From Elusimicrobiota bacterium (GTDB lineage: Bacteria > Elusimicrobiota > UBA8919), in the NCBI GenBank assembly GCA_003452965.1, contig DMMW01000010.1, positions 1 to 34,525 of the forward strand: a DNA stretch of 34,525 bases, written 5' to 3'. Shown here one piece after another: positions 186 to 34,169 of the stretch; positions within the stretch are counted from its first letter, which is position 1, and each line of letters begins with the position of its first letter. Made by a program: the position numbers and the translations under genes. The notes under the pieces were generated by a model. It did no database searches. It was not told the DNA's origin and was given only the letters and a program-made list of their open reading frames with translations.

Positions 186-1358
186 TTATCTTGGTGTTGC
201 ATCCGGCAGACCGCCGTCAACGGGAATGGTTGCGCCTGTGGTTGGTGTTTGCCGTGTTACAAAGAAGAGAACTGCATTTGCGACATGTCTTGCCGTAATT
301 TTTGCCTTAAGTAAATTACGACTTTGATAATATTCTTGTAATTTATTTTCATCAGTTATTCCTCTGTGCTTCATCCTGTCGGGACCTATTTTTTCCCATA
401 ATCCTGATTTAGTATTTCCATCTGAAAATACCGCATCAGGAGCCACCATGTTGACTCGTATATCAAATTCTGCTAATTCCAGACTTGCAATGCGTCCCAA
501 TTGATGTGCAGCTGCTTTTGTTGCACTGTATGCACCGAAACGCGCACCGGGAGCAAATACGTTTTTAGTAGATACTATTACGATATCTCCGCCGGTTCCC
601 TGCATACGCAAATGACGGCCGGCTTCTGATAGGGTAAGTAAAGTGCCCTCAACATTTACTTTCTCAAGTTTTTGGAAATCTTCCAGTTGCATTTCATCAA
701 GCGATGCAATTAACGGTATTCCGGCATTTGCAATTATAATATCAACACCGCCCCAAACTTTACTTACTTCATCGAATCCGTTAGCTACTGAATCCGTATT
801 TGTAATATCCATTCCAATACCGAAGATGTGGTTTTCGGCTATTTTTTTAAGCTCTTCAACTAATTTATCAAGCCTTTCGCCAGGTAAGTCGGTTGCGGCA
901 ACAAAGCAGCCTTTTTCCAGCAGGCCTCTGCAAATTCCCGAGCCAATCGCACCTGCAGCACCGGTAACTATTGCAACTTCGTTTTGAAGAGGGAATCTTG
1001 AATCAGGTTCATTATCAATATAAATAATACCGATGTCTTTCAAAAATACTATTTTTGGTTTTGTGTTGTTTTTATCAATAAAACTACTCATCGCGATAGT
1101 TATTTGTTTTTTGATATTTTCAATAGGGGCATTAACATCAATAGAATCTAATTGAAGCGGTGGAATTTTTACATTTTTCAAAGGAATAGGACATAAATTT
1201 AGATTATTATTATTTTTTGAATTAACAAATTCTACTACCGATATACTTGAGCAAAATTTTAATATAACACGATTGTAACGAACATCTTCATTGCCAGAAG
1301 GTTCGGCTAAAAGCCCACGAATAATCGGTAATATTTTATATACAGTATTATTTTCCAT
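186..1358 (-). CDS. Short-chain dehydrogenase/reductase (SDR) with a ~135-aa N-terminal extension. Resembles the linker+SDR half of 'bifunctional class II aldolase/short-chain dehydrogenase' proteins.
   Basis: Rossmann motif VAIVTGAAGAIGSGICRGL, and downstream Y...K catalytic region (YSATKAA). Sits directly downstream of a class II aldolase gene on the same strand. Confidence 0.8.
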   Translation of the reverse strand: MENNTVYKILPIIRGLLAEPSGNEDVRYNRVILKFCSSISVVEFVNSKNNNNLNLCPIPLKNVKIPPLQLDSIDVNAPIENIKKQITIAMSSFIDKNNTKPKIVFLKDIGIIYIDNEPDSRFPLQNEVAIVTGAAGAIGSGICRGLLEKGCFVAATDLPGERLDKLVEELKKIAENHIFGIGMDITNTDSVANGFDEVSKVWGGVDIIIANAGIPLIASLDEMQLEDFQKLEKVNVEGTLLTLSEAGRHLRMQGTGGDIVIVSTKNVFAPGARFGAYSATKAAAHQLGRIASLELAEFDIRVNMVAPDAVFSDGNTKSGLWEKIGPDRMKHRGITDENKLQEYYQSRNLLKAKITARHVANAVLFFVTRQTPTTGATIPVDGGLPDATPR

Positions 1359-1432
1359 AATTGTGTTATAGGGTTACTTGGGTTACTAGAGTTATAGGGT
1401 TGAACTCTAAAAACTCTATAACTCAACAAACT

Positions 1433-2089
1433 CTATGAACTCTTGATGAGTTTTCGACGGTATACTTCTGCTTCTAAAGTATCCATTTGCATGTAGATTT
1501 TTTCACTGAAAAAATTCATTTTGCCTAAAATTTTTGATGCTACAACGGTTTTACAGGCACTTTCAACATACAGTGTTCTGTAATACGCTTCCTTCAAATT
1601 TGAGCCAACTGTTAAAAGTCCATGATTAGCCATTAAAATTGCATTATGGTTTTTTATTACTTCGCTTACTTTGTTTGCAATATTTTTACTACTCGGAACT
1701 GCAAATTTAATAGTAGGTACATTTGAACTGATTATACCTACAAAATCCGGTGTAAATGCTTTTAATGTTTTACCTTGCATTGCATATGCGATAGAATACG
1801 GTGGATGTGTGTGTATTACAGCGGAAATATCTTTTCTTGTATAATAACAGGCGAGATGCATTTGTATTTCGCAGGTCGGTTTTCTATTGTCGTTAATATT
1901 TTTCCCGGTTTTCAGGTTAACTGCGATATAATCAGATTCCTTAGTATCTTCAAAACATGCACCAGATACTTTCATATAAACGGTATTATCTACTCGTACA
2001 CTGGTATTACCGCCGGGTCCGACGACAAAACCTTTATCGGCTAATTCTTTTCCTATTCTAACCAGTTCTTTTTTTATATTCATAATCAA
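1433..2089 (-). CDS. Class II aldolase/adducin-family protein (fuculose/ribulose-5-phosphate aldolase-like).
   Basis: 218 aa, matching the family length. Has the metal-binding His motifs of the family (VIHTHPPYSIAYAM, ...MANHG). Same strand and operon as the SDR. Confidence 0.8.
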   Translation of the reverse strand: MIMNIKKELVRIGKELADKGFVVGPGGNTSVRVDNTVYMKVSGACFEDTKESDYIAVNLKTGKNINDNRKPTCEIQMHLACYYTRKDISAVIHTHPPYSIAYAMQGKTLKAFTPDFVGIISSNVPTIKFAVPSSKNIANKVSEVIKNHNAILMANHGLLTVGSNLKEAYYRTLYVESACKTVVASKILGKMNFFSEKIYMQMDTLEAEVYRRKLIKSS

Positions 2090-2246
2090 AATTCAGGATA
2101 CAGGATACAGGATACAGAATACAGAATACAGAATACAGGATACAGGATACAGAATACAGGATACAGGATACAGAATACAGAATACAAGATACAGGATACA
2201 GAATACAAGATACAGGATACAGGATACAGGATACAGGATACAGTGC
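2090..2246. repeat. 8-bp microsatellite (ATACAGGA / ATACAGAA / ATACAAGA), about 19 tandem units. Lies immediately upstream of the class II aldolase start codon, inside the minus-strand operon.
   Basis: Read directly: the cluster caggatacaggatacagaatacag... runs uninterrupted for ~157 bp. Followed at 2262-2292 by a short polypyrimidine repeat (ctacctttctacctctttaccttt). Confidence 0.9.
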
Positions 2247-2287
2247 TCAGTAAACAGATTAAGTGATCTCTTTACCCTTCTACCTTT

Positions 2288-3175
2288 CTACCTCTTTACC
2301 TTTGTCGCTAATGTTTTATATAATTCTAACGCTTCTTGTGGTTTCATGTTTTTATGCACAACATTATTTACTGCTTTTATCATTGCAATAGGATTTTCGC
2401 TTTGGAATATGTTTCTGCCCATATCCACACCCGACGCACCCTGCTGTACGGCACTATATGCCATTGTAAGTGCATCCAACACTGGCAGTTTTTTACCGCC
2501 TGCCATAACAATGGGAACAGGACATGATGCCGTTATAGTTTCAAAATCTTCTGGAACATAATATGTTTTTACTACATGTGCACCCAATTCTGCACATATA
2601 CGGCATGCAAGCCGAAAATATTTAGCATCCCTTACCATATCCTTGCCTACTGCGGTTACTGCTAAAACAGGTATTCCATAACGCATTCCCATATCAACCA
2701 ACTTGGTCATATTATGTATTGACCGTGTCTCAAATTCACCTCCGATAAATACCTGTATTGCCATAGCTGATACATTCATTCTGATAGCATCTTCAATATC
2801 AACAGCTATTTCTTCATTTGAAAGTTCTTTTAAGATGCTTGGTCCACCGCTTGTTCTCATAACTATAGGTGTTGTAAACGACGGAGGTATAGTAGTTCTC
2901 AAGATTCCGCGGGTCAACATAATTGCATCTGCATATTTTACAAGCGGAACAATATTTAAATCAATCCGTTCCAATCCGGTTGTAGGTCCCTGAAAATAGC
3001 CATGATCTATTGCCAGCATGACCGTGCGTCCAGTATCGCTGTTGAATATTCTTGACAGGCGGTTTTTCATACCCCAATCTAAAGAATTAGACCCTTTAAG
3101 AAAAAAACATTCCGATTTCATTGGAATATCTTCATAATATTTTTTTTCTTCTTTATTTGCGTCTGTTTCCGGCAT
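2288..3175 (-). CDS. DhnA-type class I aldolase (archaeal-type fructose-bisphosphate aldolase / ADH-synthase / LsrF family, DeoC-LacD superfamily).
   Basis: [17 protein letters not shown]... family signature. Start trimmed from the six-frame ORF (which begins at 3382) to ATG 3175, which has the SD GGAGGAG 4-5 nt upstream. The longer ORF would overlap the divergent cupin gene and its promoter. Confidence 0.75.
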
Positions 3176-3259
3176 AACTCCTCCCTGGAAATTTATTAAT
3201 TTTAATAACCTCATTATATATAAAAAATATTTTATTTTCAATAAAAATTTAAAAACCTC

Positions 3260-3654: not shown

Positions 3655-4617
3655 ATGTCATTAATATTTGGGATGTCTTTGAGAAAACTAAAAGAATATA
3701 AGGGCAGAAATCCGCGTCCTAAAGATTTCGATAAGTTTTGGGAAAGAGGTCTTTCTGAAATGAATTCAATAGCTCCAAAAATAAAAATAGTTCCTGCAAA
3801 GTTTCAGGTACCTTTTTGCAAGTGTTTGCATCTGTACTTTACTGGTGTAGGCGGAGCGCGTGTTCACGCAAAAGTTTTGCGTCCCAAAAAACCGGCTAAA
3901 AAACATCCTGCAATATTGATGTTTCACGGATATTCCTGCAGCAGCGGAGATTGGTACAACAAGCTTGCCTACGCAGCTTTGGGCTATACCGTTGCTTATT
4001 TAGATTGCCGCGGACAGGGTGGTTTATCCGAAGATAAAGGTGGGGTTACCGGCTGGACACTACACGGGCATATTGTTCGCGGATTAAGCGATTCGCCGGA
4101 AAAACTGTTATTCAGGAATATATTTCTTGATGTGGCCCAGATTGCCAAAATAGTAATGGAAATGTCCGACGTGGATGAAAACCGCGTTGGCGCCATAGGC
4201 GGCAGCATGGGCGGGGCACTTTCGTTAGTTTGCGCCGCATTGGAGCCGAGAATCAGAAGAGTTGCGCCTAATTATCCGTTTCTTTGCGATTATAAAGGTG
4301 TATGTGAAATGGATGTGACTAAAACAGCTTATGCGGAATTTCACGATTATTTCAGGAAATTTGATCCGTTACATGAAAGGGAAGAAGAGTTTTTTAACAA
4401 ACTTGGCTATATAGATGTTCAGCATTTTTGCAGCAGGATAAAAGCGGAGGTATTGATGGGTACCGGCTTGATGGATACCGATTGTCCGCCGTTCAGTCAG
4501 TTTGCCGCATACAATAAAATTAAGTCAAAAAAAACATTAGAAATATATCCGGATTTTGCGCATGAGGATTTTCCATATCATAACGATAAAATCTTCCAGT
4601 TTATGAGCAATCTATGA
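3655..4617 (+). CDS. CE7 acetyl-xylan esterase / cephalosporin-C deacetylase family (AXE1).
   Basis: Aligns along its whole length with B. subtilis Cah: N-term ...PKDFDKFW..., HGY, GGSMGG nucleophile (GxSxG), and C-terminal H of the triad (FAHED). Start set at ATG 3655 with SD GGAGG 6 nt upstream. An in-frame ATG at 3631 is a possible alternative. Confidence 0.85.
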   Translation: MSLIFGMSLRKLKEYKGRNPRPKDFDKFWERGLSEMNSIAPKIKIVPAKFQVPFCKCLHLYFTGVGGARVHAKVLRPKKPAKKHPAILMFHGYSCSSGDWYNKLAYAALGYTVAYLDCRGQGGLSEDKGGVTGWTLHGHIVRGLSDSPEKLLFRNIFLDVAQIAKIVMEMSDVDENRVGAIGGSMGGALSLVCAALEPRIRRVAPNYPFLCDYKGVCEMDVTKTAYAEFHDYFRKFDPLHEREEEFFNKLGYIDVQHFCSRIKAEVLMGTGLMDTDCPPFSQFAAYNKIKSKKTLEIYPDFAHEDFPYHNDKIFQFMSNL

Positions 4618-6630: not shown

Positions 6631-7714
6631 ATTGGAACTTAAATATAAACCGGATTTTGATTATGCAAAAGAAATGTGGAATCATTATTGGGCAAAAGAA
6701 GTATTGAAACGTCCGCTTGTGGTTGCCAATGTAGTTAAACAAGAAGGAAAAACTGTTGATAAAGATAAGTATAAGTATTATAATGCATGTACGAAGAATT
6801 ATAGAGAACAACTGACGATAATTGATGAATGGTTGGATAATACGTTATTTCTTGCTGAATCAATTCCGTGTTTTTCTCCAAGTCACGGTCCTGACCAGTT
6901 TGCTGCAATGCTCGGTGCTGATTTAAAATTTTCAGAAAGTAGCAAAACTACGAATTGGGTAGAACCTATAGTAGAAAATTGGGAAGAATTTATCCCGAAG
7001 ATTAAATTAAATGAAAATAATTCCGTCTGGCAAAGTCTTCTGGAATATTCAAAGATTCTTAAAGAACATTCAAAGGGGAAATATCTCGTTGGGATTTGCG
7101 ATTTTTATTCAAATGCCGATATGTTAAGTGCGATTCGGTCTCCGGCTAAATTGTGTATGGATTTTTATGATTATCCCGAATCAATAGCAAAGGCAATGTT
7201 ATCAGTCAGAAAATTATATAAAACGGTATATAATTCTTTATATGAAGCAGGCGGAATGAACAACGAAACCGGTACTATAGGGTGGATTCCTTTTTGGTGT
7301 AAAGATAAATATGCAACGATTCAATGTGATTTTATATGTATGGTATCACCGAAAATTGCAAATGAATATATAATTCCGGCATTAGAGGAAGAGGCGAATT
7401 TTCTTGACCATTGCATCTATCATCTTGACGGTCCCGGAGCATTACCACATCTTGATAATATTCTTGCAATAAAAAAAATTGATGCAATTCAGTGGATACC
7501 CGGTGATGGGCAGCCGCCGCAGTATGAATGGATTGATGTTCTGAAAAAATGCCAGAAAGCTGGTAAGGGACTTCAGATTTTGGATGTCACAAGCATAGAT
7601 ATTATAAAAAAATTCAGCAAAGAACTCAGTCCGGAAGGACTGGTATACTGCATAGACGTAAAGACTGAAAGAGAAGTTGATGAAATAACGACATGGCTTG
7701 AAAAAAACACTTGA
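6617..7714 (+). CDS. Putative URO-D-like (uroporphyrinogen decarboxylase / MtaA-CmuA-like methyltransferase fold) protein.
   Basis: 365 aa. His/Cys cluster DHCIYHLDGPG...IQWIPGDG, and overall length and pattern reminiscent of the URO-D-like superfamily. The assignment comes from recollection of motifs, not an alignment. Confidence 0.4.
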   Translation: MKRSKLELKYKPDFDYAKEMWNHYWAKEVLKRPLVVANVVKQEGKTVDKDKYKYYNACTKNYREQLTIIDEWLDNTLFLAESIPCFSPSHGPDQFAAMLGADLKFSESSKTTNWVEPIVENWEEFIPKIKLNENNSVWQSLLEYSKILKEHSKGKYLVGICDFYSNADMLSAIRSPAKLCMDFYDYPESIAKAMLSVRKLYKTVYNSLYEAGGMNNETGTIGWIPFWCKDKYATIQCDFICMVSPKIANEYIIPALEEEANFLDHCIYHLDGPGALPHLDNILAIKKIDAIQWIPGDGQPPQYEWIDVLKKCQKAGKGLQILDVTSIDIIKKFSKELSPEGLVYCIDVKTEREVDEITTWLEKNT

Positions 7715-7927
7715 AGCTCCATCCCGATAACAATCGGGATTATAACATTTACCATAAGATTTTAAGGAGCGGAATCCGGCCCGTCAAGGCTTCGGCCTTG
7801 GCTGGCTGCAGGATGAAGCTCCATCCCGATAACAATCGGGATTATAACATTTACCATAAGATTTTAAGGAGCGGAATCCGGCCCGTCAAGGCTTCGGCCT
7901 TGGCTGGCTGCAGGATGAAGCTCCATT
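7714..7927. repeat. 102-bp tandem direct repeat (2 full copies + 10 bp), GC-rich. Each unit carries two perfect hairpins: ATCCCGAT-aaca-ATCGGGAT, and CAAGGC-TTCG-GCCTTG with a UUCG-type tetraloop.
   Basis: Read directly: 7714-7815 = 7816-7917, identical. The six-frame 'ORF' 7711..7968 is just this repeat translated. Diverged partial copies of the unit occur at 16358-16415, and a shared ATCCGGCCCG core occurs at 95-104. Confidence 0.9.
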
Positions 7928-22477: not shown

Positions 22478-23338
22478 ATGATAGACGAAAAAGATGTTTA
22501 TGAGGCTAAGAAGAAAGTGCAGTCTGCAATGAAGGATGCGACTGTAAGGATGGCGGTGATTGTTGGGGCGATTCTGTTGGGCATTCTGTTCTTTAGACCA
22601 TGGATCCAGATTGGTCCTGGCGAAAGAGGTGTTGTCTTAAATTTTGGTGCTGTTCAGAAAAACGTGCTTGGAGAAGGATTGCATTTTAGGATACCTATAG
22701 TGCAGACGATTGCCATAATGGATGTAAAGGTGCAGAAGGCAGAGACAGGTGCTGCATCCGCCTCGTCCGATCTTCAGGATGTGACATCATCGGTTGCGCT
22801 TAACTATCATATAGTCCCGGATAAGGCAAATGTTGTCTATCAAACCATCGGGGTATACTTTAAGGAGCGTATTATAGACCCTGCAATACAAGAGGTAATG
22901 AAAGCTGTGTCAGCCAAGTATACAGCAGAAGAACTTATAACAAAGAGGGCAGCAGTAAGCGAGGCTATAAGAGAAACACTTGCTGAAAGACTTTTAGCAT
23001 ATAATATAGCAGTTGATGCATTTTCCATTATCTCATTCAGTTTCTCTAAGGTATTTACAGAAGCCATTGAGTCAAAACAGACAGCAGAACAGCTTGCACT
23101 AAAAGCAAAGAGAGACCTGGATAGGATAAAGATAGAGGCGGAGCAGACAATTACGGCAGCAAAAGCAGAGGCGGAGTCCCTGAGGCTGCAAAGAGCGAAT
23201 ATTTCTACGGACCTTATAGAATTGAGAAAAATAGAGGCAAACCTTAAGGCAATAGATAAGTGGAATGGAATCCTTCCGCAGGTTACAGGTAGCGGAGCAA
23301 TACCATTTATTGGAGTAGGGGATATACAGAAAAAATAA
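22478..23338 (+). CDS. SPFH/band-7 (prohibitin/HflC-like) membrane protein.
   Basis: N-terminal TM. PHB-domain pattern (GERGVVLNFGAVQKNVLGEGLHFRIP..., coiled-coil C-terminus). Start at ATG 22478 with SD AGGAGG 5 nt upstream. Confidence 0.8.
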   Translation: MIDEKDVYEAKKKVQSAMKDATVRMAVIVGAILLGILFFRPWIQIGPGERGVVLNFGAVQKNVLGEGLHFRIPIVQTIAIMDVKVQKAETGAASASSDLQDVTSSVALNYHIVPDKANVVYQTIGVYFKERIIDPAIQEVMKAVSAKYTAEELITKRAAVSEAIRETLAERLLAYNIAVDAFSIISFSFSKVFTEAIESKQTAEQLALKAKRDLDRIKIEAEQTITAAKAEAESLRLQRANISTDLIELRKIEANLKAIDKWNGILPQVTGSGAIPFIGVGDIQKK

Positions 23339-27960: not shown

Positions 27961-29436
27961 ATGAAAAAGTATAAAATATTCGTGAGTGGTGTGCAGAAAG
28001 AACTCAAAGCAGAACGCCGGGCAGTGAAAGATTCGATTCTCGGTGATGTCTTGCTCTCCGAGTATTTTGACGTTTTCTTGTTTGAAGATTCACCGGCTAA
28101 AAGCCATTCAGCAGAAAAGGCATATCTTGAAGAAGTCCGTAAAGGCAATATCTATATCAGCATTCTTGGCGATAAATACGGCAGCACGGGCAAGAATAAA
28201 ATTTCTCCTACCGAAGCAGAATTTCGGGAAGCAAAAACCAAGCATAAAGACATTTTAATTTATATAAAAGGTGAAAACTCCGTTGATAAAAACCGTGAAG
28301 CAGGCGTACAGAAACTTATTAAGGAGATTAAAGATTCCAAGGTGGGTTATTGTTATCGCAGATTTAATTCCATCAGCGAATTAACCAACCTTGTTTATGA
28401 AAGTTTGATTGTCTTTTTAAAAGAGAAAGGAGAAGTCGGCAGAGCCGTATTTGACCAGCGGATATGCGACAGTGCGACTTTCTCCGATATTGACGATGAA
28501 AAAGTTAAGTGGTTTTTAAAAACAGCACGAGCCAAACGGAATTTTCCACTTGCTCTTGATTCTTCAACACAAGATGTTTTTACTCATCTAAAACTTTTGA
28601 AAGACGGCAAATTGACCAACGCCGCAGTTTTATTATTCGGCAAAGAACCGAGAAAGTTTTTTGACCAGGCAAAAATCAAATGTATTCATCTGCCAAGTAC
28701 CGAAGTAGAGAAACCGTTCACATCATATCAAATTTACGAAGGGAATTTATTTGAGCAGGTGGACAAGGCAGTTAGTTTTGTATTTGATATACTCAAATTC
28801 CCTGTTATTCAGCAGGAACATACTGTCCAGGTATCTCGGCCCCGTGAAATTCCAGTATTCGTGGTTCAGGAAGCCATCGTCAACGCAGTTGCTCACCGCG
28901 ACTATAACACGACGTCCTCTGTTCAGGTAATGGTATTTCTTGACCGAGTGGAAATATGGAATTCTGGGACTTTACCAGCCCACTTAAAAATAGAAGACCT
29001 CAAAAAACCACACGCATCTCACCCGACAAATACTTTATTAGCCACAGTAATGTTTTTTGCCGATTACATTCAACAAGCAGGTTCGGGAACATTGGAGATG
29101 CTCAAACAGTGTAAGGCAAAGGGACTTCCCGAGCCGGACTTCGTATCAGTGCGGAATCTTGAATTCAAAACAATATTAGCCAGAGATATTTTTACGGAAG
29201 AGGTCTTAAATAAACTGGGATTGAATGAACGCCAGTTAAAAGCAGTAAAATATGTAAAAGAAAAAGGCAGAATAACGAATAAAGAATATCAGTTAAATTT
29301 TGGTGTTAAGAAAAGACAAGCAACAGATGATTTAAAAGATTTAGAAAATAAAGAGGTCTTAATTAAGATTGGATCTACTGGAAGGGGAACATATTACAAG
29401 GTTAATGGGGCGATAATGGGGCGAAAGGGGCAATAA
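27961..29436 (+). CDS. DUF4062 - AlbA_2/Schlafen-like - HATPase_c_4-like (RecG-C-terminal-like) three-domain protein. Candidate defence or regulatory protein.
   Basis: N-terminus KIFVSGVQKELKAERRAV...YLEEVRKGNIYISILGDKYGS fits the DUF4062 pattern (xFxSS..L..ER......P..FE......YG). Middle region KVKWFLKTARAKRNFPLALD...AAVLLFGKEP is Schlafen/AlbA_2-like. C-terminal region AIVNAVAHRDY...IWNSGTLP...QAGSGTLEM matches the HATPase_c_4 family. Domain assignments come from memory of the family consensus. Confidence 0.65.
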   Translation: MKKYKIFVSGVQKELKAERRAVKDSILGDVLLSEYFDVFLFEDSPAKSHSAEKAYLEEVRKGNIYISILGDKYGSTGKNKISPTEAEFREAKTKHKDILIYIKGENSVDKNREAGVQKLIKEIKDSKVGYCYRRFNSISELTNLVYESLIVFLKEKGEVGRAVFDQRICDSATFSDIDDEKVKWFLKTARAKRNFPLALDSSTQDVFTHLKLLKDGKLTNAAVLLFGKEPRKFFDQAKIKCIHLPSTEVEKPFTSYQIYEGNLFEQVDKAVSFVFDILKFPVIQQEHTVQVSRPREIPVFVVQEAIVNAVAHRDYNTTSSVQVMVFLDRVEIWNSGTLPAHLKIEDLKKPHASHPTNTLLATVMFFADYIQQAGSGTLEMLKQCKAKGLPEPDFVSVRNLEFKTILARDIFTEEVLNKLGLNERQLKAVKYVKEKGRITNKEYQLNFGVKKRQATDDLKDLENKEVLIKIGSTGRGTYYKVNGAIMGRKGQ

Positions 29437-29455
29437 AGGGGCGATAATGGGGCAG
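29404..29455 (+). repeat. Five evenly spaced GGGG tracts (loops 7, 5, 7, 7 nt) inside a degenerate ~11-bp tandem repeat (TAATGGGGCGA)x5. Canonical G-quadruplex-forming motif on the coding strand, spanning the last 11 codons and stop of the DUF4062 gene.
   Basis: Read directly: GGGG at 29407, 29418, 29427, 29438 and 29449. Confidence 0.7.
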
Positions 29456-29697
29456 AGCATTTAAAAAGACAGTATGTTTTTCCGATATAAAAACAGGAAA
29501 GCGCATTGGTCTCGATAAAGGCGGCCACTGGATTATCCTTCGTAGCAATAATAAAGTGGGAAAAGTTGTAGAGAAATAAAAAGAAAAATGTAAAGCGTCC
29601 ACATTTTCCTAATACACAATATGACACACAGATAAAGAACCTAAAATTAGGATTATCATTTCAAAACATAGGTCCCAAAATGACATTTATACAAGAG

Positions 29698-29866
29698 TGA
29701 CCCCACCCCCGAAAACTGTACCAGTTGAAATTAGAGTTTAGAAATGGTAAACTAAACTCATGGGGGTATGGTTATGAAACAGGGCAGGTACAAGGAAGAG
29801 CAGATTATCGGGATATTGAAGGAAGCAGAAGCCGGCATAAAGATAGATAAATTATGCCGTAAATAA
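29698..29866 (+). mobile_element. Remnant of an IS3-family (IS407-group-like) insertion sequence: a putative left inverted repeat (TGACCCCACCCCCGAAAACTG...) plus the first 30 codons of orfA (HTH transposase_8), truncated.
   Basis: 29774-29866 translates to MKQGRYKEEQIIGILKEAEAGIKIDKLCRK*, which matches the N-terminus of IS407-like OrfA (MKKRFT-EEQIIGFLKEAEAG-P-KELCRKHG...). It has an SD-like GGGGGT and an upstream TGA...CCCC terminus typical of IS3 IRs. Confidence 0.55.
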
Positions 29867-29881
29867 GGATTAAATGAGATT

Positions 29882-32800
29882 ATGAGCAATCAATTTATAA
29901 CTAATCAGGAAAAACTACTGTCGGAAGTAATAAATAATATTCTCCCATCCACACAAAAGTTAAATATCTTGGTTGGATATTTTTATTTTTCCGGATTCCA
30001 GGAAATTTATAAAAATATAGCAGATAAAGAAGTTAAAATCCTCATTGGTTTAGATATTGAAAAAGATATTTTAAACAAAGTCAAAGAATTTGAACTAATT
30101 CAATCTATAAATCTTTCCCGAAGTCAAGTAAGAGATAATTTCAATAAATCGTTTATCCAATTATTTAACGATTCAGATTATTTTGATATTGAAGAAAAAC
30201 AAGAGGCATTCCGAATATTTCTTGAAAAAATTATAAACAAAACACTTGAAATTAGAAAAACCGTCCAACAAAACCATGCAAAATTATATGTTTTTGAAAA
30301 CAAGCCGGAACATAATCAGAACGGTGAATTCTTAGGAACAATAATTACCGGTTCAAGCAACTTAACCCGTTCAGGATTAAAAGGACAGCGTGAAATAAAT
30401 GTTATATTTCGTGACAATGGCAATTACGAGGAAGCACTCAAAATATTCAACGAACTTTGGAAGGATGAAAACTCGGTAGAAATAGTCGGTAAAACTACAA
30501 CGGACAGTTTTCTTATCGAAATAATAGAAAAAATCTGGATTGATAAACTTTACGATCCATATTTATTATATATTCGTGTCTTGGAAGAATATTTTTCATT
30601 TACTAAGAAAGAAGGTATCATTCTTCCTTCCGAAATTACAAAAAATAAATTCATGAATCTTAAATATCAGAATGACGCTATTTCGCAATCAATAGAAATT
30701 CTTAACCGGCACAACGGCGTTATCATTGCGGATGTTGTTGGATTGGGAAAAAGTATTATTGCTTCTGCAGTAGCCCATAACATGGGATTACGAACAATAA
30801 TTATCTCACCACCGCATCTAATAGGGCAATGGGATGATTATCATATTGATTTTGGATTTAACGCTAAAATATTCAGCAGCGGTAAAATACAGGAAGCATT
30901 AGAATATGATTTTGCATATAATGAGCCAAAATTAATTATTATAGATGAATCGCATAAATATCGCAACGAACTAAACATTGACTACGGATATTTACATCAA
31001 CTATGCCAGGGAAACAAAGTAATTTTATTAACCGCTACGCCATTTAACAACCAACCGCAGGACATATTTTCAATGATAAGATTATTTCAAATACCTGCTA
31101 GGTCCACAATACAAACAGTAGATAATTTATCATACAGATTTAAAGAACTTATCAAGGAATATAAAGAAATAAAAAAATCACAAATACAAAAAAAGTCGGA
31201 TATGAAAGATGAAATTAAAATATTGGCACAAAAAATCCGTGATATACTTGCTCCATTGGTTATTCGTCGGTCAAGATTGGACTTGGAAAAAATTAATGAA
31301 TACCGAGAAGACCTTAAAAAACAAGGGATATCATTTCCTGAAGTTAAAGATCCTACAATTTTAGACTATCCGCTTGGAAAACTTAGTATACTTTACGAAA
31401 AAACTCTTGAAAAAATTGTATCCACGGAAGACGAATCACAGGGCTTCATGGGAACAAGATATAAACCGACAAATTATCTTAAAGAAGAACACAAAAAACA
31501 AGTTGCTGATGAATTAGGTGTAAAAGAAGATTTACTTGTACAGGTACAAATAAACCTGTCAAAATTTATGCGTCGCCTATTAGTCAGGCGTTTTGAAAGC
31601 TCGGTAAAAGCATTTCACGATTCCTTGAACTCACTAATAAAATCATCCGAATACATGCGTGATTGGTATAATAAATTTGAGAGTGTTCCAATATACAAAA
31701 AAGGTGATTTGCCGGACATAGAAATCCTTGAACAATCCACCAGTGAAGATTTAGATGAAGAACTCCAGCAGATTACATTTGACGAGCAACTAAAAAAATA
31801 TTATGACAAAGGACTTAAAATAATAAAAAAAGAATGGCTAAAAGACACTTTCATTAAAGACATTGAAAAAGACATAAAACTACTAAAAGAAATACGTGCA
31901 GAATGGTTTAAAGACGGCATCAAACACGACCCGAAATTAGAATGTTTTGAAAAAGAAATAAAGCAACAACTAAAAAAAGAACCCAACAGAAAAATAGTTG
32001 TATTTACCGAATTTTCAGATACAGCAAACTATCTATACGAAAAACTCAAAAACAAATTGAAAATATTTAAATATACCTCCGCGGACTCAAGTGAAACCAA
32101 CAAAAAAATAATCAAAGAAAACTTTGATGCCGGTAATCCTATACAAAAAGACGACTACGACATTCTTATTGCTACCGATGCAATTTCAGAAGGCTTTAAC
32201 CTTCACAAAGCAGGTATTATATTCAACTATGACATCCCATACAACCCGACAAGAGTAATACAACGGGTAGGACGTATAAACCGCATAAACAAAAAAGTAT
32301 TTAATGAACTTTACATCTATAATTTCTTTCCAACGGCTACCGGTGAAGCAGAAACACGGATAAAAAAGATATCTACATTAAAAATTTCATTATTTAATGC
32401 TTTACTTGGTACCGACATAAAAGTATTAACCTCGGATGAAGAATTGGAATCCTATTACAAAAATGAATTTATAAAATCAATGGCAAATCAAGAAGAACTA
32501 TCATGGGATGTAAAATATCGCAATGAACTTGGAATATTGAAAAATAAACATCCAGATATATTACAAAAGGCAATGGCAGTTCCCCATCGTGCCCGCATTA
32601 GAAGAACAGAAAAGAAAGATACAGCTGGAGTCATTGTATTTGCGCGAAAAGGGAAAGAATACACGTTCAAACTTGGCATTTCAAAGGAAGATTATACAAC
32701 ATTAGGTCCTGAAACTGCACTAAAACTATTTGAATCAGAAATAACCGAAAAATCGGAAAAAATAAGTAAAAACTTTGAACCGATATACCAGCATGTAAAA

Positions 32801-33121
32801 AACAACCTATTCAACAAAAAAACCCAGGTATCTTTTGATAAAGGAAAAACCGAATCAATAAACAAATTAGAAGTATTACAAGAAAAGATTCCAGATAAAA
32901 AGGACTATTTCAACGATTTAAAATATATAATAAAAGAACTGGATGCATTACCTGAAAGATATGCTAAACAAATCCGTCAAATATCAGAAAAATCCCTTAA
33001 AAAAGATGTTGAAGAACTGCAAAAAGATGTATCGCAGAAATACTTAATAGAAATCATAGAAAAAGCACGAAGAATAGAAGATGAAGCAGAAAGCTTAATA
33101 CTCACAGAAGAACTGATATAA
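29882..33121 (+). CDS. Fusion protein: N-terminal PLD-family (HKD) nuclease domain + SNF2/Rad54-like SF2 helicase/translocase.
   Basis: HKD motif NHAKLYVFEN...GSSNLTRSG. SNF2 motifs: I DVVGLGKS, II IIIDESHKYRN, III LLTATPFNNQPQDIFSMIRLF, V LIATDAISEGFNLH, VI QRVGRINRINKK. Confidence 0.8.
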   Translation: MSNQFITNQEKLLSEVINNILPSTQKLNILVGYFYFSGFQEIYKNIADKEVKILIGLDIEKDILNKVKEFELIQSINLSRSQVRDNFNKSFIQLFNDSDYFDIEEKQEAFRIFLEKIINKTLEIRKTVQQNHAKLYVFENKPEHNQNGEFLGTIITGSSNLTRSGLKGQREINVIFRDNGNYEEALKIFNELWKDENSVEIVGKTTTDSFLIEIIEKIWIDKLYDPYLLYIRVLEEYFSFTKKEGIILPSEITKNKFMNLKYQNDAISQSIEILNRHNGVIIADVVGLGKSIIASAVAHNMGLRTIIISPPHLIGQWDDYHIDFGFNAKIFSSGKIQEALEYDFAYNEPKLIIIDESHKYRNELNIDYGYLHQLCQGNKVILLTATPFNNQPQDIFSMIRLFQIPARSTIQTVDNLSYRFKELIKEYKEIKKSQIQKKSDMKDEIKILAQKIRDILAPLVIRRSRLDLEKINEYREDLKKQGISFPEVKDPTILDYPLGKLSILYEKTLEKIVSTEDESQGFMGTRYKPTNYLKEEHKKQVADELGVKEDLLVQVQINLSKFMRRLLVRRFESSVKAFHDSLNSLIKSSEYMRDWYNKFESVPIYKKGDLPDIEILEQSTSEDLDEELQQITFDEQLKKYYDKGLKIIKKEWLKDTFIKDIEKDIKLLKEIRAEWFKDGIKHDPKLECFEKEIKQQLKKEPNRKIVVFTEFSDTANYLYEKLKNKLKIFKYTSADSSETNKKIIKENFDAGNPIQKDDYDILIATDAISEGFNLHKAGIIFNYDIPYNPTRVIQRVGRINRINKKVFNELYIYNFFPTATGEAETRIKKISTLKISLFNALLGTDIKVLTSDEELESYYKNEFIKSMANQEELSWDVKYRNELGILKNKHPDILQKAMAVPHRARIRRTEKKDTAGVIVFARKGKEYTFKLGISKEDYTTLGPETALKLFESEITEKSEKISKNFEPIYQHVKNNLFNKKTQVSFDKGKTESINKLEVLQEKIPDKKDYFNDLKYIIKELDALPERYAKQIRQISEKSLKKDVEELQKDVSQKYLIEIIEKARRIEDEAESLILTEELI

Positions 33122-33134
33122 TGAAGTATAATTT

Positions 33135-34169
33135 ATGAGTGAAAATCGTATCGTTTTAGACAAAACTTATTTGAATTTCTTAAACGAAATCAAACACAAA
33201 ATTGCTTCTGCAAGAATACAAGCAAGTCGGCATTTAAATAAGGAATTGATAGAACTTTACTGGGATATCGGAAAAACAATTATTGAGAAACAAAAGCAAT
33301 ATGGATGGGGACAAAGTATCGTTGAAAAATTAGCCAATGATTTGCAAAATGGATTTCCTAATTTGCGGGGATACTCAAGTCGTAATCTATGGGATATGAG
33401 AAGATTTTATGATACATATAAAGATTCATCAATTCTGCGACAGCTTGTCGCAGAAATACCATGGGGACACAACCTAATGATTATAAACAAAATATCCAAC
33501 ATGAAAGAACGAGAATATTATATTAAATCATCGCGTGATATGGGTTGGTCCAGGAACGTACTTCTGAATCAAATTAAAGCCGGAGCATATCAATTAAGTT
33601 TAAGAAAAAAACAACACAACTTTGAAAAAGCTTTACCTGTACATCTTTCAGAACAAGCGGATGAATCACTTAAAAGTGTTTATAGCCTGGATTTTCTCGG
33701 AATAACAAGACCAGTATTAGAAAGAGAGCTTGAAAAACGGCTTATTGAAAAAATTAAACATTTTCTGCTTGAACTTGGTTCGGGGTTTTCATTCATCGGC
33801 AATCAGTATCGGCTTGAATTAGACGGCACTGAATATTTTGTTGATTTGTTATTTTTTAACCGTAAAATTAAATGTCTCGTTGCCGTTGAACTTAAAACAG
33901 GTAAATTTCAGCCCGAATATGCCGGAAAAATGGATTTTTATCTACATCTACTAAACGAACAGACCCGCCTGAAAGATGAAAACCCGCCGATAGGAATTAT
34001 TCTTTGTGCCGATAAAAGTAATATAACCGTTGAATACGCTTTAAGAAGCGTTAAAAATCCTATGGGTGTATCACAATACAATTTAACAACAAAACTTCCC
34101 GCTGAACTTAAAAAAGTTTTACCGTCGGAAAAGGAAATGAAGAATCAACTTTTAGAAGAAATTAAGTGA
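33135..34169 (+). CDS. DUF1016 / YhcG-family PD-(D/E)xK nuclease-fold protein.
   Basis: N-terminal DUF1016_N-like region (LYWDIGKTIIEKQKQYGWGQSIVEKLANDL...). C-terminal PD-(D/E)xK core: D (YFVDLLFF), ELK (AVELKTGKF). Lies 13 nt after the PLD-SNF2 gene. Confidence 0.7.
   Translation: MSENRIVLDKTYLNFLNEIKHKIASARIQASRHLNKELIELYWDIGKTIIEKQKQYGWGQSIVEKLANDLQNGFPNLRGYSSRNLWDMRRFYDTYKDSSILRQLVAEIPWGHNLMIINKISNMKEREYYIKSSRDMGWSRNVLLNQIKAGAYQLSLRKKQHNFEKALPVHLSEQADESLKSVYSLDFLGITRPVLERELEKRLIEKIKHFLLELGSGFSFIGNQYRLELDGTEYFVDLLFFNRKIKCLVAVELKTGKFQPEYAGKMDFYLHLLNEQTRLKDENPPIGIILCADKSNITVEYALRSVKNPMGVSQYNLTTKLPAELKKVLPSEKEMKNQLLEEIK

Follow-up and report, generated by a model that had tools for sequence, protein, structure and literature searches.

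Families of heptameric simple sequence repeats (SSRs) have been known in bacteria for decades, and both their function and the preference for a 7-nucleotide (nt) unit are a standing question. Two such families, GGGAATC in Xanthomonas and GGGGA(T/C)T in Nostoc, are intergenic (Rehm et al. 2015, PMC4692102), and the same work refers to Mrazek 2007 both on heptamer SSRs being over-represented and on the idea of polymerase slippage, and also cites three heptanucleotide families of Calothrix PCC7601. TAACTGA direct repeats occur in marine Beggiatoaceae, Cyanobacteria and some Bacteroidetes (MacGregor 2015, PMC4679880), where a translational role was proposed for them, and an (ATCTTTC)n repeat lies in the 5' untranslated region (UTR) of hmw1A and hmw2A in Haemophilus influenzae (PMC12721329, PMC8262952). 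Here we describe an array of the heptamer CTGTATC and its variants from the phylum Elusimicrobia. The array lies in a 34,525-nt stretch of DNA from an Elusimicrobiota bacterium (contig DMMW01000010.1 of assembly GCA_003452965.1; the whole stretch is referred to as the window), between the genes for a DeoC/DhnA-family aldolase and a class II aldolase, and it is best read as a slowly changing variable-number repeat rather than a phase-variation switch.

The Xanthomonas and Nostoc repeats are alike in that tandem 7-nt units are dispersed in intergenic DNA, on both strands and sometimes as inverted pairs; their length and sequence vary widely between close genomes, long arrays do not sit at the same genes in sister species, and a 26-unit Nostoc array between the operon genes pecE and pecF is placed like the array described here (PMC4692102). 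Their units, however, are G-rich and G-quadruplex-capable, whereas CTGTATC has no G-runs, its RNA is unstructured and its host belongs to the Elusimicrobia. The TAACTGA repeat is likewise a mostly intergenic heptamer of low Shine-Dalgarno (SD) character, often in forward orientation a few nt from an SD-less start and present in up to dozens of copies. The layout alone is shared, as no rotation of CTGTATC or of its reverse complement GATACAG gives TAACTGA; BOGUAY carries 169 TAACTGA sets per genome, mostly of 2-6 copies, compared with six arrays in 72 kb here, and control scans suggest that the CTGTATN unit is not special. The STRR repeats of Calothrix and Nostoc are also dispersed tandem heptamers in the non-coding DNA of a free-living host, with several unit variants per genome, but they differ in unit and phylum and their copies per genome number in the hundreds. 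The hmw SSR shares a pyrimidine-rich heptamer in sense orientation 5' of a start codon, beside a purine-rich tract, with a variable number of units. In hmw a long hairpin with a G-rich arm is cut by RNase III and expression drops with repeat number, whereas the equivalent fold here was no better than shuffles; moreover, length variants are rare here (seen in 1 of 13 assemblies), and the array precedes a metabolic gene in a bacterium that is not host-adapted. An RNase III-type hairpin, as in hmw, and a match to a Csr/Rsm covariance model were both looked for and not found.

Taken together, the array belongs to the generic class of heptameric intergenic SSRs: it has a 7-nt tandem unit, is found at several loci, is non-coding and varies in length among relatives. 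It falls outside each of the named families above because its unit differs. The kind of repeat is therefore already known, and what is new is the phylum and a unit that is not G-rich.

A 21-unit heptamer array fills the spacer between two aldolase genes

Analysis of the repeat region with Tandem Repeats Finder (TRF) revealed an array of period 7 at 2094-2243 (150 bp, 21.4 copies, score 237, 91% matches, no indels), and the autocorrelation was 0.88 at lag 7 compared with 0.15 at lag 8. Decoding of the units gave 21 full 7-bp units at 2096-2242. The original prediction, made from the sequence alone, had described an 8-bp microsatellite of 19 units; both the period and the count are corrected by these data, while the A/G variants of the unit that it reported were recovered, with GGATACA present 12 times, GAATACA 7 times and AGATACA twice on the plus strand. 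The surrounding genes are on the minus strand, so the unit in mRNA sense is UGUAUCC, UGUAUUC or UGUAUCU (CTGTATC register). The parts of the array are as follows:

2244-2257, minus strand: two degenerate units, CTGTTTA CTGAGCA, that lead into the array in register at its 5' end (regular-expression scan for (CTGNNNN)n)
2094-2243, minus strand: heptamer array, sense 5' to 3' AAAACBACBBAABAABBBAAA, with A = TGTATCC, B = TGTATTC and C = TGTATCT (TRF, autocorrelation and unit decoding)
2084-2095, minus strand: 12-nt junction TGAATTTTGATT, joining the last unit to the ATG at 2083, without an SD sequence

Nine of the 21 units are variants, every one of them a C-to-T change at unit position 6 or 7, and the longest pure run is four units. 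The base content of the array is T 72, C 33, G 21 and A 21, and a degenerate last unit, CTGAATT, can be read within the 12-nt junction. As had been predicted, the array is intercistronic and takes up most of the space between the aldolase genes (150 of 204 nt, or 73%), stopping 12 nt short of the class II aldolase ATG; the prediction had named no strand, and both neighbours are on the minus strand. A search with a two-unit 14-mer allowing up to two mismatches gave 20 matches compared with 0.21 expected from shuffles, and within the window all of these were confined to the array. A peptide encoded by the array was rejected, the sole candidate being a 40-aa open reading frame (2208 to 2086) that starts with TTG and has neither an ATG nor an SD sequence.

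We also examined the RNA of the spacer. The minimum free energy of the sense strand was -33.9 kcal/mol compared with -43.5 +/- 4.3 kcal/mol for 200 dinucleotide shuffles (z = +2.23), and 200 of 200 shuffles were at least as stable; little structure would be expected of a unit that is not self-complementary. RNA of the plus strand had no structure beyond that of shuffles (z = +1.82). A hairpin of the hmw type, pairing the purine-rich 8-mers next to the array with its first heptamers, was not supported (minus-strand fold of 2185-2310, -21.9 compared with -25.1 +/- 3.5 kcal/mol, z = +0.91; 160 of 200 shuffles at least as stable). A consensus scan of the spacer identified no terminator and no sigma-70 match on the sense strand, so that a promoter or terminator inside the spacer was rejected, as was a known RNA family, with no Rfam match at the gathering score or even at E<=10. 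Matches to the antisense-promoter consensus were at background level (14 compared with 10.6 expected). No SD sequence was detected ahead of the ATG at 2083; about half of the window genes likewise lack one, and the absence of an SD sequence was not retained as a hallmark of the array.

Array length is almost invariant among assemblies of the host species

The host is Elusimicrobia bacterium RIFOXYC2_FULL_34_12, a groundwater bacterium with a protein 100% identical to the class II aldolase. Look-ups by exact protein sequence yielded 13 distinct assemblies with the locus, the majority of them from one aquifer series and some possibly sharing reads. The identical 21-unit string, including the order of the variants, was present in 12 of these 13 assemblies, spanning at least two single-nucleotide polymorphism (SNP) haplotypes. 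The remaining sequence (L158, from ERZ909572) has 22 units owing to one extra B (AAB[B]AABBBAAA) and a spacer of 211 nt; this allele was seen once, all counts being those of assembly consensus sequences. Only three SNP positions (243, 267 and 1759) were identified in the ~7.7 kb around the array, so the region is nearly clonal, and the near-invariance of array length weighs little for that reason. One indel event in 147 bp compared with three SNPs in 7.7 kb suggests that mutability per base is elevated in the array. The predicted changeability of the unit number is borne out by the 22- and 21-unit alleles and by the strong length polymorphism of the paralogous arrays described below; the count is not identical everywhere.

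Two sequences from a single assembly of low coverage (ERZ5996431, ~3.5x) switch locus inside a repeat, L002 inside the heptamer array and L159 inside an 8-mer array. We rejected L002 as a real 8-unit allele or rearrangement: its units, AABBBAAA, are those that begin the array at the Mem_trans locus (see below) joined to those that close the focal array, and its partner anomaly, L159, comes from the same assembly. Both are probably misassemblies induced by repeats, and true recombination between arrays is less favoured.

The array belongs to a dispersed and length-polymorphic family

A scan of 74.7 kb from the window species and its sister species returned 11 arrays of the form (CTGNNNN)x>=3, all of them intergenic, compared with none in 200 shuffles. 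Across 72 kb of the window species, six CTGTATN/CAGGATR arrays were identified in two regions, with at least five arrays in the genome besides the focal one, and every TRF array with a score above 100 had a period of 7. A second locus, the intergenic region between divergent SurA-like and Mem_trans genes, was traced through the foreign flank of L002 and belongs to the same metagenome-assembled genome (MAG) as the window; a third is the spacer between an HD gene and SecD. These loci carry the following arrays:

SurA-like/Mem_trans locus: long CTGTATC array just 5' of a promoter-like site, TTGACT-17-TAAAAT
SurA-like/Mem_trans locus: CTGTATA/CTGTATT mini-array in the SurA-like leader, just ahead of GGAGG
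SurA-like/Mem_trans locus: four CTGTNTN units on the other strand, stopping 8 nt before the SD-less Mem_trans ATG
HD-to-SecD spacer: GC-rich hairpin surrounded by CAGGATR units, with sense CTGTATN units after it

The long array at the SurA-like/Mem_trans locus was present as alleles of 24 units (AABBBAABBABAAABBAAAAAACx), 11 units (AAAAAACAACx) and, in haplotype L189, none, and the mini-array of the SurA-like leader had either 10 or 4 units. L189 lacks two of the arrays altogether, the long array and that of the Mem_trans leader, and the ~4 kb flanking the arrays at this locus contain just two SNP positions. In the HD-to-SecD spacer two strains differ, with 2+4 and 1+2 units. These alleles indicate that the number of units shifts, by single and by multiple units, much faster than the flanks gain SNPs. 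A 7-unit sub-pattern shared by the two long arrays is, by our estimate, at about chance level, and no gene conversion was inferred from it.

Other rearrangements were observed at the same loci. L189 (9600-10010) represents a third haplotype of the SurA-like/Mem_trans intergenic region, in which ~160 nt of unrelated sequence with CACTATCCC-type repeats stand in place of both arrays and Ns interrupt the mini-array. One assembly series only (L143/L187) has the SurA-like promoter region duplicated in tandem over 77 nt, in the interval that separates the long array from the mini-array. The GC-rich hairpin (CCGCCACTAA...GGCGG) is itself dispersed in this AT-rich genome, mostly flanked by CAGGATA units (L002 1925-1947; L138 ~4405-4440; L130 6695-6745; L149 ~2700-2760), and a compensatory change, CCCGCC/GGCGGG versus TCCGCC/GGCGGA, distinguishes two strains; the hairpin looks like an element of the repetitive extragenic palindromic (REP) or miniature inverted-repeat transposable element (MITE) kind that is associated with the heptamers.

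The nearest relative has a class II aldolase that is 87% identical and DNA that is 79-85% identical, and was assigned to RIFOXYD2_FULL_34_15 through the Mem_trans orthologue. This sister species has the same three genes, but its inter-aldolase junction is 20 nt long and consists of AGTAATG/AGTAACG x4, an array that provides both the TAA stop and the ATG, with no CTGTATN units. The AGTAATG unit recurs 3' of the sister's class II aldolase gene, and both sister arrays were invariant in six assemblies. At the orthologue of the second locus, the sister species carries six degenerate CTGTRNN units and four units before Mem_trans, and the 'CTGA(A)TTTT..ATG' junction of the focal array recurs at the Mem_trans gene of both species. 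The presence of degenerate arrays at the sister's orthologous sites argues that the CTGTATN family is older than the species split. The long array between the aldolase genes, by comparison, is particular to the window species, and a gain in its lineage would be the simpler reading. More distant homologues of the class II aldolase belong to a different operon, in which the gene overlaps its upstream neighbour; they are uninformative on gain versus loss for this reason.

We also asked how the unit itself is distributed. TGTATYC x3 occurs in more than 119 genome stretches from very diverse phyla (median 5 copies, maximum 41), with inconsistent orientation and gene context. Among viral contigs, x3 arrays of TGTATCC were present in 5, and those of two permutations of the same composition in 17 and 4. 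TGTATCC was accordingly rejected as a special cross-phylum family, the controls being equally or more frequent in viral contigs and the context inconsistent, and the cross-phylum matches look like a general tendency of bacterial DNA towards heptamer SSRs rather than a transmitted family.

A tolerated slippage product is the favoured explanation

We favour, with moderate confidence, the explanation that the array is a tolerated product of slippage with a passive effect as a spacer, within the dispersed CTGTATN heptamer SSR family; the focal array would be a lineage-specific expansion of that intergenic family. Growth and shrinkage would occur by slipped-strand mispairing, with an occasional duplication or deletion of several units, and later C-to-T transitions would have degraded 9 of the 21 units. 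In this way a tightly coupled 20-nt junction, the state seen in the sister species, would have been turned into a 204-nt spacer that is presumably co-transcribed with the operon and whose RNA is pyrimidine-rich, SD-less and, as predicted by folding, essentially unstructured. The likeliest effect would be a passive one: translation of the class II aldolase would no longer be coupled to that of the upstream aldolase, and ribosomes would have a long stretch of single-stranded RNA on which to land ahead of the SD-less ATG. The arrays are probably tolerated by-products and not dedicated regulators.

Several points weigh against this explanation. The assemblies are all short-read metagenomes, mostly from one aquifer and some perhaps sharing reads, and array lengths may hold assembly errors. 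The polarity of gain versus loss hangs on one sister species, the operon of more distant relatives being different, and co-transcription and the translational effect rest on inference from sequence. With 12 of 13 assemblies identical, the focal array is far more stable than its paralogues, which could reflect selection on length and so hint at function. The CTG core is conserved in register between both species at the Mem_trans leader. In addition, wherever an array comes within 50 nt of a start codon, its mRNA strand carries the CTGTATN reading (four of four, n = 4, p ~0.06), and in three of these cases a similar CTGA(A)TTTT junction links the array, at 8-12 nt, to an ATG without an SD sequence; on these four arrays, a sense orientation close to start codons is not what would be expected of pure junk.

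Alternative explanations

The orientation and placement of the start-proximal arrays, those of Mem_trans in both species included, are also what speaks for the main functional rival, a dedicated SD-independent translation element in which sense CTGTATN arrays bind S1, a cold-shock-type protein or another RNA-binding protein in place of an SD sequence. The predicted single-strandedness of the RNA, the CTG register conserved between species and the greater stability of the focal array are consistent with such a role, and the same layout, with repeats near start codons where SD sequences are rare, was described for TAACTGA (MacGregor 2015, PMC4679880). However, the orientation is counted on four arrays and about half of the window genes lack an SD sequence anyway; the genes that follow two of the arrays do carry GGAGG or GGAG, other arrays lie 5' of a promoter or are oppositely oriented, and L189 and the genes of the sister species manage without long arrays. 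We consider this element doubtful, and quite doubtful its extension to a cis-system across the Elusimicrobia lineage in which sense arrays replace the SD sequence, recruit ribosomes or an S1/Csp-like protein and set expression by their length. A contingency locus or 'tuning knob', in which heptamer gain and loss would change the spacer length and so switch or grade the class II aldolase and the short-chain dehydrogenase (SDR) encoded downstream of it, as with (ATCTTTC)n of hmw1A, is unlikely. It can draw on the existence of the 22-unit variant, on arrays of the same unit that vary several-fold in length beside near-identical flanks, on the elevated mutability per base implied by one indel event compared with three SNP positions in 7.7 kb, and on the documented control of hmw1A expression by a transcribed pyrimidine-rich heptamer SSR (PMC12721329, PMC8262952). 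The classic phase-variation arrangement of the original prediction is nevertheless not supported: the 21-unit pattern is the same in 12 of 13 assemblies, which represent at least two SNP haplotypes, the array is impure with no pure run beyond four units, it lies outside both coding sequences and is unrelated to promoter hexamers or reading frame, the hmw-like hairpin is unsupported (z = +0.91), and the genes are metabolic ones of a free-living groundwater host. This heptamer is found at several intergenic sites of unrelated context, and in the sister species as well, which makes it a property of the genome and not a locus-specific contingency switch; the array may at most act as a slow quantitative 'tuning knob'.

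The same lack of structure could serve polarity or attenuation, with the spacer, in which C exceeds G, acting as a site for Rho loading or RNase E entry that lowers expression of the class II aldolase and the SDR. Rut sites are unstructured and have an excess of C over G, and the 204-nt untranslated spacer offers an array with C 33 and G 21, RNA less structured than every shuffle and no intrinsic terminator; C nevertheless makes up just 22% of the array, which is U-rich and not C-rich, and the same unit is also found 5' of promoters, where this logic fails, so that we hold this explanation to be very unlikely. On the opposite strand, an antisense transcript with 12 GGA motifs might titrate a CsrA-like protein in the manner of a CsrB/Rsm sponge. 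The CsrB repeat has the consensus CAGGA(U/A/C)G, which CAGGAUA/CAGGAUG on the plus strand resemble, a likeness that we treat as no more than a lead; the HD-to-SecD spacer contains CAGGATG/CAGGATA units in mRNA sense, and the proteins weighed as possible binders of TAACTGA repeats included CsrA-like ones (PMC4679880). This sponge is highly improbable given that no Rfam family matched even at E<=10, the GGA motifs are not in hairpin loops (plus strand z = +1.82), antisense promoter matches are at background (14 compared with 10.6 expected) and GGA is lost in 9 of the 21 units. It is just as hard to credit that the array, or its length, was made by short-read assemblers. Assembly ERZ5996431 (~3.5x) did yield two junctions inside repeats (L002 and L159), Ns are present in the L189 mini-array and the 22-unit allele was seen once, but the same 21-unit pattern was returned in 12 assemblies by megahit k141/k127, SPAdes, JGI and the NCBI MAG, and the order of the variant units makes the path unique for long k-mers.

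Gene cluster and further repeats in the window

The array lies in a cluster with the following features:

3213-3241, minus strand: sigma-70-like site TTGAAA-17-TATAAT (11/12), the best consensus match of the region, 5' of the DeoC-family gene
2288-3175, minus strand: DeoC/DhnA-family aldolase, upstream cistron, 295 aa (Pfam PF01791), with AGGAGG ahead of the ATG at 3175
2269-2303, minus strand: purine-rich 8-mer mini-array GGTAAAGA GGTAGAAA GGTAGAAG GGTAAAGA (TRF 2273-2303, period 8, 3.9 copies)
1433-2083, minus strand: class II aldolase/adducin-family protein, downstream cistron, 216 aa, ATG at 2083 (Pfam PF00596, E = 4.7e-46)
1359-1432, minus strand: 74-nt spacer between the class II aldolase and SDR genes, with 9-mer mini-arrays AGAGTTNNN and GTAACCCNA and no SD sequence (TRF 1365-1443)
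186-1358, minus strand: SDR, third cistron, 390 aa (Pfam adh_short; NCBIfam NF006194, positions 433-703 of 703, below cutoff)

The site at 3213-3241 is presumed to be the operon promoter on the basis of the pattern match. The gene identities given in the original prediction were broadly right, with PF01791 (DeoC/DhnA) upstream and PF00596 (class II aldolase) downstream of the array. The upstream cistron is also an LsrF-type thiolase by NCBIfam NF006081 (508 bits compared with a cutoff of 297), and gene calls make it 295 or 308 aa long. The ATG at 2083 agrees with the start of the 87%-identical orthologue. The SDR start was found to lack an SD sequence in the SD scan, and the SDR aligns with the C-terminal half of the 'bifunctional aldolase/short-chain dehydrogenase' PRK08324; the class II aldolase and SDR together (186-2083) look like a split version of a PRK08324/RhaD-like bifunctional enzyme. 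The SDR also has an N-terminal extension of ~120 aa without a Pfam match, and in the spacer before it (1365-1443) AGAGTTNNN is repeated four to five times and followed by GTAACCCNA x3, the two being in part mutually complementary.

The polypurine/polypyrimidine mini-repeat predicted beside the heptamer array is real, although TRF places it at 2273-2303, overlapping the codons and stop of the DeoC-family gene: the 8-mers code for its final four codons (KVKR) and the TAG stop (2290-2288). The purine-rich 8-mer array is a second dispersed short-repeat family and may be the diverged counterpart of the AGTAATG array of the sister species. The GGTAAAGA/GGTAGAAA unit was also observed 3' of the SecD stop (L002 345-366), and the misjoin of L159 falls inside this 8-mer array.

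Elsewhere in the window, a perfect 102-bp tandem duplication (7712-7926, 2.1 copies, 100% identical) lies just 5' of an Ldh/Mdh-family gene. It is present in the window, L004 and L154 and single-copy in L001, L003, L006, L007, L010, L153, L157 and L160; this polymorphism in the population changes the called N-terminus of the Ldh/Mdh-family gene (317 or 340 aa). Together with the 77-nt duplication described above, this suggests that tandem duplications generally arise at a high rate in intergenic DNA of the species. Two further arrays, TAATGGGGCGA x4.8 (period 11) at 29403-29453 and TGTTGGGGCGATTC x2.3 at 22561-22590, have a GGGGCGA core in common. An apparent defence island at 27961-34169 encodes a DUF4062 + HATPase_c_4 protein, a 1079-aa PLDc_2/SNF2-helicase protein and a DUF1016/YhcG nuclease-like protein, and past the end of the window (L190/L192) there are an MmeI-type restriction-modification enzyme and a Gp49/HTH toxin-antitoxin-like pair.

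Implications

Heptamer and 8-mer arrays of this kind probably cause misjoins in assemblies of low coverage, and they should not be annotated by default as phase-variation switches. Were the lineage-wide cis-system true, it would constitute a second independent instance of the translational network hypothesis of the TAACTGA type, with natural length alleles. The Elusimicrobia repeats also provide a natural experiment in public metagenomes, in which the same heptamer occupies an operon spacer, a 5'-UTR and a site upstream of a promoter, with co-existing alleles of 21/22, 24/11/0 and 10/4 units on almost SNP-free backgrounds and a sister species that lacks the focal array. Thus, the mutation rates of the arrays, and any effect that they may have on expression, can be estimated from existing reads and metatranscriptomes.

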